A stretch of 64,000 bases of DNA from Paracoccaceae bacterium (lineage in GTDB: Bacteria; Pseudomonadota; Alphaproteobacteria; Rhodobacterales; Rhodobacteraceae), in assembly GCA_050302475.1 (NCBI GenBank), contig JBNLBF010000008.1:64121-128120 (forward strand), written 5' to 3'. This document shows positions 23,728-50,811 of this stretch, piece after piece; within the stretch, counting starts at the first letter, position 1, and the number at the start of each line of letters is the position of its first letter. Under the pieces are notes generated by a model. That model made no database searches. It had not been told where the DNA came from and was given only the letters and a program-made list of their open reading frames with translations. The position numbers were made by a program, and so were the translations under genes.

Positions 23728-23783
23728 TGCCTCCATTCAGTGCGGATGTTGTCGATATATCCTTGCCCGGAATCATGGTGTCA

Positions 23784-23925
23784 GCCGCCGGGCGAACGCC
23801 AGCCCGTCACGGCGGGCCGGCGCTTCTCCAGCGGAGTGCCACGCGCAGCAGGAAGAAGTGATAGTCGAGCACAAAGTGCCCTGAATGGAGGTTATAGCGC
23901 CACCCCACGGGCAGGCGCTCGCCCC
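23784..23925. repeat. MITE-like repeat element, copy A (imperfect terminal inverted repeats)
   Basis: Shares 5' (GCCRCCGGGCGARCGCCWGCCCGTC) and 3' (GCGCCACCCCACGGGCAGGCGCTCGCCC) termini plus internal GGCGCTTCT and AAGTGCCCT blocks with copy B at 50590-50729. Sits between convergent genes. Confidence 0.6.
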
Positions 23926-23955
23926 ATGTCATTCGATGGGTGGAAACCTCGAACC

Positions 23956-24444
23956 CTACAATTTTTTAAACATCACATACGCATCCACGAACCCTTTCGC
24001 TGGATGCTGAAACGCGGCGGGCAGAGTGCCGACAATCTCAAATCCGAGTTTCTGCCACAGGCCAACCGCCCCGGTATTTGTGGAGGCAACGAAGTTGAAC
24101 TGCATCGCTGTGAACCCCATTTGGCGCGCCTCGTTCTGCGAAAATGTGCACATCATCGATGCGATCCCGCGCCCCCGCGCCTGATCCGCAACCACGTAGC
24201 CGCAATTGCAGACATGCGCGCCCGGTCCTCCGTGATTGGGTTTGATGTAAAACGTTCCCAGAATCTCGTTCCGTGTCCCCAGCGCGACATAGGTGGCCTG
24301 CGGTGCCGTGATCCATAGCTGATGGGCATCCGCTTCGCTCAGGTCCGTGGGCAGGCCATACGTCTCACCCGCCCGAAAGACAGGTTCCAGGATTCCCCAG
24401 ACGCCGGGCCAGTAGCTTTCCTTGAAGGGCAGAACGCGAAACAT
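23956..24444 (-). CDS. GNAT family N-acetyltransferase
   Basis: 162 aa. Acetyl-CoA motif QARGRGIASMM, C-terminal GFEIVG. Confidence 0.75.
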   Translation of the reverse strand: MFRVLPFKESYWPGVWGILEPVFRAGETYGLPTDLSEADAHQLWITAPQATYVALGTRNEILGTFYIKPNHGGPGAHVCNCGYVVADQARGRGIASMMCTFSQNEARQMGFTAMQFNFVASTNTGAVGLWQKLGFEIVGTLPAAFQHPAKGFVDAYVMFKKL

Positions 24445-47290: not shown

Positions 47291-47360
47291 TGAGTAGCTC
47301 ATTAGGTAGAGCAACAGACTTCTAATCTGTGGGTAGCGGGTTCGACTCCCGCCTCAACTG
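47288..47360 (+). tRNA. tRNA-Arg(TCT)-like gene with defective 5' acceptor strand (possible truncated or pseudo-tRNA)
   Basis: Perfect D-arm GCTCATTAGGTAGAGC. Anticodon stem-loop ACAGA-CTTCTAA-TCTGT (anticodon TCT at 47321-47323). T-arm GCGGGTTCGACTCCCGC. Acceptor 3' strand CTCAACT. Nucleotides 1-3 (CCA) cannot pair with 70-72. Confidence 0.4.
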
Positions 47361-47726: not shown

Positions 47727-48869
47727 GTGACGATGATGAAAATGATTGAAAATATATTGGGATTCCACCGGATCACGGTCGAAGAAAACCAGCGAGCGAT
47801 TGTCCTGTACAAAGGGCGGTTCGCGGGTATCTTGGGACCGGGTGAGCACCGTCTGCGCACAAAAGACACGCGGACCGAGCTGCACGACCTGAACACACCG
47901 GAGATCGTCACACCCCTTCTGCAGGCCTTGTTCCGCGAACGCCCGGATATTGTTGCCGAGCATTTCGTCGAATTCGCGGCAGATACGGATCAGGTGCTGA
48001 TCGTTGCACGTGACGGGCGGCTGAACCGCGTTCTGCGCCCGGAAAACCGGGTTGTCGTCTGGCAGGCGGCGGGTCCGTGGACGGTCGAAACACTCGACCT
48101 GACCGAGGGGCTGGAGATCACGCCGCAACTGGCCGAACGGTTGGTTCGCGCAGGGATCACCACCAGCATGACCACGCTGGAGGTTCCGGATGCTCATGTC
48201 GGGCTGATGACGGTTGACGGTGCAATGGATCGGCAGCTGGCACCCGGGACGCACCGGTTCTGGAATGTCGGGCGCAAACTGGCGGTTCGGCTGATCGACA
48301 CGCGCTGGCGGACGCACGATGTTGTTGGGCAGGATATCCTGACCGCGGATCGTGTCACGCTGCGGGTCAATCTGGCGGCGGACTTTCGGGTCACCGATCC
48401 GGGTCAGGCGGCAGGTGCGGTGAAAGACTTCGAAGAAGCGCTTCACCGGGCCTTGCAGTTCGCGTTCCGTAAAACGCTGGGCGCGAAAACGCTGGACCAG
48501 TTGCTGGGTGAGAAAGTCACCGTCGACGCTGAGGTCGCGGATCAGGTCCGTACGGACATGGCCGCCATCGGGGTCGAGGTCGGGGCCATCGCGTTGAAAG
48601 ACGTGATCCTGCCGGGTGATATGCGAGAGATCCTGAACAGCGTCGTTCAGGCGGAGAAAGAGGCCGAAGCCAACGTCATCCGAAGACGCGAGGAAACGAA
48701 CGCCACCCGCAGCCTGCTCAACACCGCCAAAGTCATGGCCGAAAACCCGGTCATGCTGCGGCTGAAAGAGCTGGAGGCGCTGGAAGCCATCGCCGGGAAA
48801 GTCGAACGGCTGACGGTCCACAGCGGGACGGACGGATTGATGAACGATCTGGTCCGGCTTCGCGATTAA
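47727..48869 (+). CDS. SPFH/band-7 (slipin/stomatin-like) domain protein
   Basis: 380 aa. N-terminal band-7 start (AIVLYKGRF..GPGEHRL), C-terminal coiled region. Several alternative ATGs at 47727-47742. Confidence 0.75.
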   Translation: MTMMKMIENILGFHRITVEENQRAIVLYKGRFAGILGPGEHRLRTKDTRTELHDLNTPEIVTPLLQALFRERPDIVAEHFVEFAADTDQVLIVARDGRLNRVLRPENRVVVWQAAGPWTVETLDLTEGLEITPQLAERLVRAGITTSMTTLEVPDAHVGLMTVDGAMDRQLAPGTHRFWNVGRKLAVRLIDTRWRTHDVVGQDILTADRVTLRVNLAADFRVTDPGQAAGAVKDFEEALHRALQFAFRKTLGAKTLDQLLGEKVTVDAEVADQVRTDMAAIGVEVGAIALKDVILPGDMREILNSVVQAEKEAEANVIRRREETNATRSLLNTAKVMAENPVMLRLKELEALEAIAGKVERLTVHSGTDGLMNDLVRLRD

Positions 48870-48870
48870 G

Positions 48871-48908
48871 AAAGACCCGCGCGGGAAACTGCGCGGGTTA
48901 TTTTTTGG
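48871..48908 (+). terminator. intrinsic terminator with GNRA tetraloop, copy 1 of 3 identical
   Basis: aaagaCCCGCGCGG-GAAA-CTGCGCGGGTTATTTTTTGG. Confidence 0.8.
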
Positions 48909-49050
48909 ACATGTGTGCCTTCTCACGCACACGTCGCAAATTGCGTCTTTCATAGCACAAAAATAGCCAAATTTCTGGGATTTGCATTTGCAAGTTGAGC
49001 AATAAAGCAATTTTCGTTACCTTGCGTCATCTTTTGACTAGGAGGGGATC

Positions 49051-49677
49051 ATGTCACTAGCGAAGAAAATCGGGGCTGTTGCGGTCATCGCACTAGGTCT
49101 GGCAACAGCAACAACAGGTTCGGCGCAGACCAGCTACTATTTCGGTGGCGGTCTGGTTTACAGCATGGCGTCATCCACTTTCTCTGTAACCGCACCCAAC
49201 GAAGGTGATCTTTATGGCCTTGGTCTGACATATGGCATGAGGGTTGACTCCGGCAGCTACTTCTATGGCGGCGAAGTTGATGCGGATATTAATGTTGGCG
49301 GCGAACTGAGACTTCTTGGAACTGGACCGGCCTGCAGCGAAGGTTTTGCAAGCAACGCATATTATTGTTCGCAAACAGCGACCATGCGCTTGCGCGGGAT
49401 CTTTGGCACCAATATGGGTGGCTTTGACGTCTTTGGCAGTCTCGGCTACGGAATTATCTACGGTGAAGGTGCGATTGGTCCCTCTGGAGTCTCTGCGACT
49501 GCTGTTTCTGGAGGATTTACGTACGGCATTGGTGCCCAGATGCCGATGGCTGGCGGGACAATGCGTTTCGAGATCATTCAGGATGAGTTTACGCAGAGCA
49601 TCAGTCAGGCCTGCTGCGATAGTGCACCGGAATGGTCCGCGACATCGGCAAAAGTCAGTTATCTCTGGACCTTTTGA
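49051..49677 (+). CDS. small outer-membrane beta-barrel protein (OmpA-like/OMP_b-brl), paralog 1
   Basis: 208 aa. Signal peptide ...TGSAQTSYY, Gly/Tyr-rich amphipathic strands, C-terminal ...YLWTF. Confidence 0.75.
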   Translation: MSLAKKIGAVAVIALGLATATTGSAQTSYYFGGGLVYSMASSTFSVTAPNEGDLYGLGLTYGMRVDSGSYFYGGEVDADINVGGELRLLGTGPACSEGFASNAYYCSQTATMRLRGIFGTNMGGFDVFGSLGYGIIYGEGAIGPSGVSATAVSGGFTYGIGAQMPMAGGTMRFEIIQDEFTQSISQACCDSAPEWSATSAKVSYLWTF

Positions 49678-49698
49678 TCCTTGTAAATTGATGGAATG

Positions 49699-49730
49699 CC
49701 CGCGCGGGAAACTGCGCGGGTTATTTTTTG
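49699..49730 (+). terminator. intrinsic terminator, copy 2 of 3 identical
   Basis: CCCGCGCGG-GAAA-CTGCGCGGGTTATTTTTTG. Confidence 0.8.
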
Positions 49731-49858
49731 ACGAAAGTGAACCTTGCCACATACAAATGAAATATTGTGGCTTTTCTTCCACAAGGATGAAGCAAAATTT
49801 CCTAACCTATGGTTGCAGATTGAGTGGTTGCTGAATCTGGAGTAACCATACGTCATCT

Positions 49859-50500
49859 TTGGATACGGAGAGAGCAATGACTTTTTTACGAAAAATCGGC
49901 GCGGTTGCGGCCATTGCAATGGGTTTGACGACGGCTACCATAGCGTCGGCGCAGACCAGTTATTATGTCGGTGGTGGACTTGCCTATACAGATGCAGTGA
50001 CAACCAGTAATCTTAACCCAGCGTCAACGTCTTCAGGCGATCTTTTCGGCTTGGGCATCACTATCGGTTTGCGTAGCGATACAGGCAGCATGTTCTACGG
50101 CGCAGAAATTGATGGCGAGGTTTCCGTCTCCGGCGAAATTCGAAACGATTCCAGCACTAACACTTGCGCTGATGGAGCTGACTGGGCTCGGTATTGCGAT
50201 CAGACAGCGACGGTAAGACTCCGCGGTATTGTCGGAACCGATATCAGCGGTTACGAGGTCTTTGGGTCGTTGGGTTACGGACTTATGACTGGCGACGCTG
50301 CTGTTGACACATTTGCAACCGACACAGGTGTGTCCGGAGGGGTTACTTACGGTATCGGAATGCAAACCCAGTTTGGTTCGGGGTTGGTTCGTTTCGAGGT
50401 CATACGCGATGAGTTTACGACCACGATCGTCAGTCCCCAAGGCTACAACCCAACGTGGCAGGCGACGACGGTAAAGGCCTCTTATATCTATCAGTTCTGA
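49859..50500 (+). CDS. small outer-membrane beta-barrel protein, paralog 2
   Basis: 213 aa. Signal peptide and first ~35 aa nearly identical to paralog 1 (IGAVAAIAMGLTTATIASAQTSYYVGGGLAY). Ends ...YIYQF. Confidence 0.75.
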   Translation: MDTERAMTFLRKIGAVAAIAMGLTTATIASAQTSYYVGGGLAYTDAVTTSNLNPASTSSGDLFGLGITIGLRSDTGSMFYGAEIDGEVSVSGEIRNDSSTNTCADGADWARYCDQTATVRLRGIVGTDISGYEVFGSLGYGLMTGDAAVDTFATDTGVSGGVTYGIGMQTQFGSGLVRFEVIRDEFTTTIVSPQGYNPTWQATTVKASYIYQF

Positions 50501-50520
50501 AATCAAATTTGCTGATTGGG

Positions 50521-50559
50521 AAAGACCCGTGCGGGAAACTGCGCGGGTTATTTTTTTGG
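50521..50559 (+). terminator. intrinsic terminator, copy 3 of 3
   Basis: aaagaCCCGTGCGG-GAAA-CTGCGCGGGTTATTTTTTTGG (one G-U pair). Confidence 0.8.
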
Positions 50560-50589
50560 GCGTCTTCTTCAGCCCGGAATCAAGGCGAA

Positions 50590-50729
50590 GCCACCGGGCG
50601 AGCGCCTGCCCGTCCCGACGGATTGGCGCTTCTGTTAAGTCGCACAACGCTCATAGGTAAGAGTCAGTGGCCACTATAAAGTGCCCTACATTTACGTTGC
50701 GGCGCCACCCCACGGGCAGGCGCTCGCCC
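50590..50729. repeat. MITE-like repeat element, copy B (perfect 17-bp terminal inverted repeats)
   Basis: GGGCGAGCGCCTGCCCG at the 5' end and CGGGCAGGCGCTCGCCC at the 3' end. Between convergent OMP and pyrF genes. Confidence 0.6.
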
Positions 50730-50811
50730 TCATCAGGTCTAGGATTGGTGATCTTTTCCCTTAGTCACAGACGCTTTCGAATGGCGCGTTAAATCTCGCG
50801 GTCAAACAACC

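Follow-up and report, generated by a model that had tools for sequence, protein, structure and literature searches.

Two intergenic repeats, copy A and copy B, lie in a 64,000-nucleotide stretch of the genome of a Paracoccaceae bacterium (assembly GCA_050302475.1, contig JBNLBF010000008.1, positions 64,121 to 128,120 of the forward strand; hereafter the window). We think it probable that both belong to a Rhodobacterales family of non-coding, non-autonomous structured intergenic repeats that works like REPINs (doublets of repetitive extragenic palindromes, REPs), enterobacterial repetitive intergenic consensus (ERIC) elements and the mosaics known as bacterial interspersed mosaic elements (BIMEs). 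An earlier note on this DNA had offered a choice between a MITE (miniature inverted-repeat transposable element) and a REP/BIME-like repeat. It was right in kind, the element being a dispersed, multi-copy, non-coding inverted repeat, but the element did not pass strict tests for a MITE. A REP/BIME-like (REPIN- or ERIC-like) repeat fits better because no target duplication, insertion sequence (IS) or transposase was seen, because each "terminal repeat" is one half of a self-folding imperfect palindrome, because asymmetric conserved parts lie outside the arms of the inverted repeat, and because the element is fused to GTAG REPs in the tandem mosaic arrays of one genome.

How large is the family? 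An exact 23-mer of the 3' arm, searched against a collection of species-representative genomes, returned 83 further copies at 77 non-overlapping loci in 28 genomes, and all 77 loci belong to the Rhodobacterales (Paracoccaceae or Roseobacteraceae). A profile search of the fetched loci gave 104 copies scoring at least 50 bits in the 28 genomes and the window, many more than the two from which the earlier note had worked. Pseudoroseicyclus tamaricis holds at least 47 copies and one Paracoccaceae metagenome-assembled genome (MAG) at least 14; nearly all other carriers, including Roseovarius, Celeribacter, Alloyangia, Sediminimonas, Allgaiera, Pelagivirga, Acidimangrovimonas and Roseicyclus, hold one to three. 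These copy numbers are lower bounds, as the profile search covered only the neighbourhoods of exact 23-mer matches. In the window, a scan with the family profile at maximum sensitivity found copies A and B only, both on the + strand. Viral contigs gave no match to the element, and in a plasmid collection copies were present in Salipiger and Pacificitalea only, unannotated in both.

Alignment of 81 copies revealed a fixed, asymmetric layout and a unit of about 160-190 bp. Read 5' to 3', the leader CCCCGCCCGGAAT and the small hairpin P0 come first. They are followed by the 5' arm, (C/A)GGGCGAGCGCCTGCCCGT, the one-sided loop CCCGGC and GGGCTGGCGCT. Beyond a variable centre of about 85 nt stand AGCGCCACCCC and the 3' arm, ACGGGCAGGCGCTCGCCC(G/T)G. 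The centre is lineage-specific, and only TGGC..ATAAAG is conserved within it. A column-wise scan of the centre found no robust conserved helix above 57%, nor did RNAalifold give this region a stable structure. In the consensus fold the element is a rod of about 30 bp, with 19 + 10 pairs and the 6-nt one-sided loop; the arms form its stem P1 and the stretches inside them its stem P2. The earlier note had predicted a long-range 17-bp helix should the element be transcribed: the long helix is there, but its size had been understated.

Written out explicitly and applied to the 81 copies, this structure has 95.3% of its cells paired, compared with 33-47% when the partners are slid, and none of 500 shuffles attained the observed value on any of five pairing measures. 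Among copies that lack the exact 23-mer, one (L059:6725) carries three compensated double changes in its arms and two others (L001:6748 and L058:761) carry one each. Because the 3' arm is fixed in part by sampling with the exact 23-mer, the near-invariance of the 5' arm indicates that complementarity is kept as much as sequence. Selection for structure is clearest in P0, whose 3-nt loop is closed by stems of 3-6 bp in at least ten different complementary versions; one of its alignment pairs (39-51) is CG in 66 copies and GC in 10. Outside P. tamaricis the loop is GAA in 22 of 39 copies, a count that rises to about 29 of the 39 when GAA in another register and the other G-N-A loops are included; in P. 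tamaricis it is mostly AAA. Three-nucleotide G-N-A loops are exceptionally stable in DNA.

Which strand is the structured one? A tally of G-U against A-C pairs proved contradictory, P1 pointing to the minus strand (24:4) and P2 to the plus strand (22:6), and we rejected it as a guide. Only P0 offers strand-specific signs, namely its G-N-A loops and a few G-T wobbles, and these favour the + strand. That the 5' leader pairs with the first part of the 5' arm was not supported when the alignment was judged by eye: the P. tamaricis copies retain a mismatch there.

Both halves of the rod are imperfect palindromes in their own right. The first, U1 (GAGCGCCTGCCCGTCCCGGCGGGCTGGCGCTC, 32 nt), gave a DNA fold of -17.2 kcal/mol (z -5.6) and the second, U2 (GAGCGCCACCCCACGGGCAGGCGCTC, 26 nt), one of -9.9 kcal/mol (z -3.9); in copy B the local palindrome U1 is made up of 50601-50614 and 50620-50630. 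The element is hence a doublet of inverted REP-like units, and by folding models its single strand can take either the rod or a two-hairpin "clover" form. The family is also modular, because extra hairpin modules have been inserted: about 11 copies carry small ones, many of them closed by G-N-A, in the U1 loop or within the 5' arm; in about seven family members they stand in the one-sided loop CCCGGC. Nested modules such as CACGCC-AGA-GGCGTG and CATGCC-GGA-GGCATG were seen at two fixed places in the element (L005, L008, L009:3589-3806, L011, L013, L021:7128-7347, L023, L032:1700-1931, L034, L066:5375-5595 and L076). They resemble tiny palindromic insertions of a class of their own.

Set beside the family, copy B is an intact element and copy A a decaying relic. 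The earlier note had described perfect 17-bp terminal inverted repeats in copy B; this was one base short, the true arms being 18 nt long and 100% complementary, with 98 nt between them. Its description of copy A as imperfect, with two mismatches, agrees with our finding of 89% complementarity (16/18). A 28-nt block, GCGCCACCCCACGGGCAGGCGCTCGCCC, is identical in A and B and closes both, where chance would be expected to give zero matches. Pairwise alignment of A with B likewise recovered the common internal blocks GGCGCTTCT and AAAGTGCCCT and the differing centres. The starts that had been assigned to the elements, 50590 and 23784, coincide neither with the arms nor with the family boundary. 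Similarity, both between A and B and across the family, begins farther 5', at GCCCGGAATCA (50572 in B, 23765 in A). This similar 5' stretch holds a small hairpin without a 3' counterpart, which makes the element asymmetric; its length here is about 160 nt. Copy B folds well beyond its shuffles, both as RNA (-75.7 kcal/mol, z -4.4) and as DNA (-43.1 kcal/mol, z -5.2). Copy A folds no better than shuffles (z -2.2 and -1.4), and it has ACAAAG at 23871-23876 where the family has ATAAAG.

Copies come and go at individual sites. At the trpS site, the element was missing from all 80 metagenome loci that encode trpS relatives (59-84% identity); two of the 80 share the trpS-GNAT-Usp gene order, and their gaps of about 35-80 nt hold other hairpins or GTAG REPs. 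The 228-nt trpS-GNAT gap of the window is shared by the near-identical genome GCA_050299735.1. In GCA_023630215.1, whose PyrF is 90% identical, the corresponding gap has a diverged copy in the opposite orientation to that in the window, with a centre like that of copy B, not A. At the other site, the interval from the Band_7 gene to pyrF is 1.9 kb long in the window, where it contains two genes for barrel proteins, two additional copies of the terminator, and copy B; in GCA_023630215.1 it contains nothing but a bidirectional terminator of about 40 nt.

Four genomes have a copy in the pheS-pheT spacer; in three of them it runs antisense to the operon, in the remaining one sense. Three closely related copies from this spacer (L015:5400-6160, L057:2475-3540 and L064:1-790) are mosaics of each other: L015 has its 5' part in common with L057 but its centre in common with L064, although the flanks of L015 and L057 are almost identical. 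These mosaics suggest gene conversion between copies. An extra insertion of about 330 nt was observed upstream in L057. Gain, loss, re-use of spacers and long retention together amount to REPIN/ERIC-like behaviour, unlike that of a conserved regulatory 3' untranslated region (UTR). The earlier note had held that a family of just two copies, lying in conserved 3' UTRs, would point to a regulatory RNA; we found many copies, the two sites are not conserved 3' UTRs, and most relatives are without the element at both.

The large number of copies in P. tamaricis has its own structure. There the element forms tandem arrays with a period of 280-297 nt (L010, L046, L073, L039 and L004), and the repeat unit consists of element, spacer and a classical GTAG REP, GTAGGGTGGGYT..AACCCACC. 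Within 100 nt of the copies in P. tamaricis the motif GTAGGGYGG has a density of 2.38 per kb, versus 0.035 per kb in the rest of these loci, a 68-fold difference. The REP lies mostly downstream of the element, inverted, and GTAG REPs are essentially absent beside copies in other genomes. Since the two lie side by side in P. tamaricis, the element is a sequence class distinct from the GTAG REPs. We conclude that the P. tamaricis burst probably came from fusion with GTAG REPs, which may have given the element access to a REP-associated tyrosine transposase (RAYT) system, or to array amplification, and so to a high copy number. The Rfam family "Ruegeria cis2 sRNA" also matches in P. tamaricis, at L046:5083-5229 (-), without overlapping the element. 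In a different genome, the Paracoccaceae MAG A1.bin.17 (L009, L023 and L024), several copies are followed by a shared 3' motif, ..GATTTCAG.GGA..CG.TTCCGCC.GAACGC.TCC.., which hints at a possible second co-repeat of that genome.

How would a REPIN- or ERIC-like family of this kind spread? It would move as DNA, by way of a trans-acting enzyme that recognises the folded single strand. Such mobilisation would depend on the hairpin and leave no target duplication, as has been proposed for REPINs and RAYT transposases. Local amplification could proceed by tandem duplication and homogenisation by gene conversion, and copies would persist only at sites where insertion does little harm. Effects on flanking mRNAs, for instance through a long duplex at the 3' end, would be secondary.

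Several observations weigh against this reading. REPs normally flank their RAYT, and no such gene is seen in the fetched DNA: a motif-level scan (HUH and Y-x-x-NP motifs) found no RAYT-like open reading frame (ORF) near about 100 copies. Nor did any neighbouring gene recur beside the copies, beyond ABC ATPases and the orthologous pheST locus; the largest arrays adjoin ordinary genes. The lack of target duplication, RAYT and recurrent neighbour weakens strict membership of both the MITE and the REPIN class. No clean pair of filled and empty sites was obtained, as the trpS-GNAT gaps are non-homologous and the pyrF site differs by the 1.9-kb block, so that insertion boundaries are undefined and only presence or absence, copy number and flips of orientation speak for mobility. 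Sampling by the exact 23-mer accounts in part for the near-invariance of the 3' arm, and the counts of genomic context given below rest on crude in-house gene calls. Finally, P0 covaries, its G-N-A loops are always on one strand and copies are retained at orthologous sites, all of which a selected function as RNA or as single-stranded DNA might likewise explain.

Might the element instead be an RNA kept by the host, either a hairpin acting in cis (as an exonuclease block, an RNase III cut or a polymerase pause) or a small RNA? We regard this as unlikely, though several observations speak for it. The fold of copy B is stable, P0 covaries, the rod has compensated changes, and copies are sited at gene 3' ends and, across genera, in the pheS-pheT operon; ERIC and Correia elements have effects of this type (PMC3184786). 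The copies are indeed mostly at gene 3' ends, about half of them between convergent genes, and a copy often takes up all of the space from one stop codon to the other; the 199-nt gap between fdhF and a convergent gene in an annotated Salipiger plasmid is filled by one. Under two gene-call filters, 40-43 copies fell in convergent-gene spacers and 5-7 in divergent ones. Downstream of a co-directional gene, however, sense copies (17-19) and antisense copies (20-23) were nearly equal in number, and for an asymmetric element this makes a strand-specific cis-RNA role unlikely. Copies A and B contain neither a promoter-like site nor an intrinsic terminator (a G+C-rich hairpin followed by a T run) with its U-tail. 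The tandem arrays, the range of copy number from 1 to 47, the relatives without the element at the same sites, the lost fold of copy A and the failure of the G-U versus A-C tally to single out one strand all argue in the same direction. Rfam, at curated and permissive thresholds, assigned no family to the element in the window and 18 loci; the elements gave only far sub-threshold matches to microRNA precursors, and the other curated matches, two tRNAs (L050 and L016), are clear of it. A conserved ORF is excluded because indels of 1-2 nt separate the conserved blocks, and a tblastx "match" of copy A to L048 turned out to be a coding gene.

It is also conceivable, at rather long odds, that the element is a single-strand structure of long standing, passed on largely by vertical inheritance and served by a partner enzyme of its own; one strand would be the active one and would bear P0, and orientation would be tied to replication polarity. 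If true, this would mean either a second, REP-independent replicator-host system in Alphaproteobacteria or a structure put to host use. In 50 of 73 cases (p = 0.002) the locally G-rich strand was the + strand of the element, a trend with the same direction in all subsets and significant in P. tamaricis only. Genes more than 1.5 kb from the element were mostly antisense to it (44:22). The proxies for the leading strand thus disagree in the loci, because the G-rich strand and the orientation of distant genes point opposite ways. In the window, the + strand is G-rich and bears most genes and both copies. The window's excess of G over C on the + strand was +0.080 in + strand genes and -0.006 in - strand genes, a strong coding-strand component that is almost absent from the 77 loci of other genomes.

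A classical MITE, that is, an internally deleted IS moved by cut-and-paste with target duplications by a DDE transposase encoded elsewhere, seems to us very improbable. In form the resemblance is close: size, perfect terminal inverted repeats, lack of an ORF, intergenic position and multiple copies all fit the published definition, which asks for terminal inverted repeats of at least 10-15 bp and a target duplication of 2-10 bp (PMC11602168), and copy number varies greatly among genomes. A check for target-site duplications suggested in the earlier note showed no direct repeat of 5 nt or more at any consistent boundary pair in 68 copies; duplications shorter than 5 nt are indistinguishable from conserved sequence. 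The direct repeat CGCCCGG, found at both ends, was ruled out as a target duplication, as its two copies differ consistently. The search for a matching IS, also suggested there, was negative: neither an IS or other larger element sharing these ends nor a transposase turned up in about 600 kb surrounding 100 copies (77 loci of at most 8 kb), on plasmids or within the window. Moreover, conserved sequence extends about 25-30 nt past the 5' arm and not at all past the 3' arm, so that the arms are not terminal, and they are halves of self-folding palindromes.

We likewise consider very improbable a host DNA site, whose quasi-palindromic arms would bind a dimeric or architectural protein or form a cruciform in the service of chromosome organisation (compare gyrase and IHF at BIMEs): the arms are conserved in sequence beyond pairing alone, each half is palindromic and orientation is weakly tied to local strand composition, but the conservation of the 3' arm is partly a sampling artefact, a diverged copy changes sequence yet keeps pairing, most genomes have one to three copies, too few for an architectural role, and we know of no candidate binding protein.

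Table 1. Parts of copies A and B, in window coordinates
Feature	Position	Strand	Remarks
Copy B, whole element	50572..50729	+	nhmmer match 50560-50745, 132 bits; aligns with 80 family members; intact
Copy B, 5' leader GCCCGGAATCA (family consensus CCCCGCCCGGAAT)	50572..50582	+	conserved in A and B and across genera; 3' end without counterpart
Copy B, small hairpin P0, GGC-GAA-GCC	50584..50592	+	family stems of 3-6 bp, 3-nt loop
Copy B, 5' arm (P1 5' strand) GGGCGAGCGCCTGCCCGT	50596..50613	+	fully complementary to 50712-50729
Copy B, one-sided internal loop CCCGAC (family CCCGGC)	50614..50619	+	left unpaired by the consensus structure
Copy B, P2 5' strand GGATTGGCGCT	50620..50630	+	pairs with 50701-50711 in the family structure
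Copy B, variable centre	50631..50700	+	ATAAAG conserved at 50676-50681, on a small hairpin CACT/AGTG seen in folds
Copy B, P2 3' strand GGCGCCACCCC	50701..50711	+	family structure
Copy B, 3' arm (P1 3' strand) ACGGGCAGGCGCTCGCCC	50712..50729	+	complementarity; block common to A and B
Copy A, whole element	23765..23924	+	nhmmer match 23752-23935, 113 bits; decaying
Copy A, small hairpin P0, TGGT-GTCA-GCCG	23776..23787	+	two G-T wobbles
Copy A, 5' arm GGGCGAACGCCAGCCCGT	23790..23807	+	89% complementary to 23907-23924
Copy A, P2 5' strand GGGCCGGCGCT	23814..23824	+	partner AGCGCCACCCC at 23896-23906
Copy A, 3' arm ACGGGCAGGCGCTCGCCC	23907..23924	+	equal to the copy B 3' arm

Both window copies lie between convergent genes, as the earlier note had it: copy A between trpS (+) and a gene for a GNAT acetyltransferase (-), and copy B between an outer-membrane-barrel-like gene (+) and pyrF (-). 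The barrel-like gene has its own ordinary terminator at 50524-50557, upstream of copy B. The statement that the window encodes no transposase also holds, Pfam having found neither transposase nor integrase among about 59 called ORFs; about 12 of these gave no hit at all, and the matches of the others were to housekeeping families only. Searches for exact matches to the window's TrpS protein and to its PyrF, the latter translated from the start chosen first, brought up no record. The barrel-like gene is one of a pair. A unit of about 825 bp, consisting of an outer-membrane beta-barrel-like gene and a terminator, is tandemly duplicated at 48864-50556, the genes lying at 49051-49677 and 49859-50500 and the terminator GACCCGCGCGGGAAACTGCGCGGGTTATTTTTT being present three times; only the first paralogue gave a weak OMP_b-brl match. 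Just 3' of copy A, at 23938-23959, lies a degenerate GTAG-type REP, GGGTGGAAACCTCGAACCCTAC, which provides the stop codon of the GNAT gene. Intact REPs, GGTGGGTTAAACCCACCCTAC and GTAGGGCGGGCTTCAGCCCGCC, fill the corresponding gap in the metagenome relatives L085 and L099, and no intact REP was found elsewhere in the window. The only Rfam match in the window at the curated threshold is a tRNA at 47291-47356 (+), which does not overlap the element.

The element is a real yet fairly ordinary kind of feature. The family is apparently undescribed: it has no Rfam model and no plasmid annotation, literature searches by topic and by arm sequence returned no description of it, and the available text of a large MITE survey has no passage on Rhodobacterales. 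It adds to this major marine group a well-defined structured repeat family that is common to many genera. Short-read assemblies break at the element. In one fragmented MAG, from Albidovulum, the matches are located at contig ends, and a public short-read contig of the window's own species (L078:2021-2122; identical PyrF) stops in the middle of copy B, an end consistent with an assembly break at a repeat, though the break falls in the variable centre. The element can be mistaken for a small RNA or a 3' UTR element, and it is usable as a typing marker. Its fixed asymmetric design, retention at orthologous sites and fusion with REPs make it a good subject for the question of how REPIN/ERIC-type elements spread when no transposase is obvious.

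How, then, does the element compare with known systems? With MITEs it shares small size, the absence of a transposase and multiple copies. It has inverted repeats (18 nt, perfect in B and 16/18 in A), which are not terminal on the 5' side, where conserved sequence lies outside the arm; neither a target duplication nor a parent IS was found. Correia elements of Neisseria (CREE/NEMIS) and bacterial MITEs are likewise about 100-160 bp long, with terminal inverted repeats that yield a long RNA hairpin, no ORF and many copies, often at gene 3' ends (PMC3184786, PMC11602168). Unlike them, the element has no TA or other duplication and no internal promoter-like site, and its conservation runs beyond the 5' arm. 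The attC sites of integrons resemble it in fold only, as single-strand hairpins that combine two stems with an unpaired spacer, a mismatch and a terminal structure that varies. The element has no GTTRRRY/RYYYAAC boxes, cassette array or nearby integrase.

Closer parallels are found among the palindromic intergenic repeats. The tandem mosaic of element, spacer and GTAG REP in P. tamaricis, together with the hairpin modules of other copies, recalls the BIMEs of Escherichia coli and the RIMEs of rhizobia in organisation; outside P. tamaricis the element is solitary. ERIC elements (also called intergenic repeat units, IRUs) of enterobacteria are imperfect palindromes of about 127 bp that, like the element, are intergenic or lie within operons in either orientation and are conserved across genera. 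ERIC variants carry insertions at fixed internal sites, as the element does. Their copy number, too, ranges from few to hundreds. ERIC elements may affect mRNA (PMC3184786). Elements of the ERIC type end in TA on both sides and show target duplications (PMC3184786), whereas our element has neither and is unrelated to them in sequence and hosts.

A REP unit is a 20-40-bp imperfect palindrome with a GTAG or CGTC tag at one end, although untagged REP-like families are acknowledged (PMC3733652), and a REPIN consists of two inverted units that form a hairpin, for which both one long fold and two local folds have been drawn (PMC3116915). The element departs from this pattern in that its units are preceded by C(C/A)GGGC and have no GTAG or CGTC tag, its spacer of about 85 nt is unusually long, a leader and P0 are added to give a unit of 160-190 bp, no element-flanked RAYT was found by the motif scan near about 100 copies, and most genomes hold one to three copies. 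Like a REPIN, however, it is built of two inverted imperfect palindromes and a spacer, with U1 and U2 both within the 20-40-bp range. It is extragenic and over-represented, occurs in clusters and tandem arrays, varies in copy number among relatives, is retained for long periods within lineages and shows no target duplication. The element is best filed as one that works like REPIN and ERIC elements, combining REPIN form with ERIC behaviour, and that is MITE-like in form.

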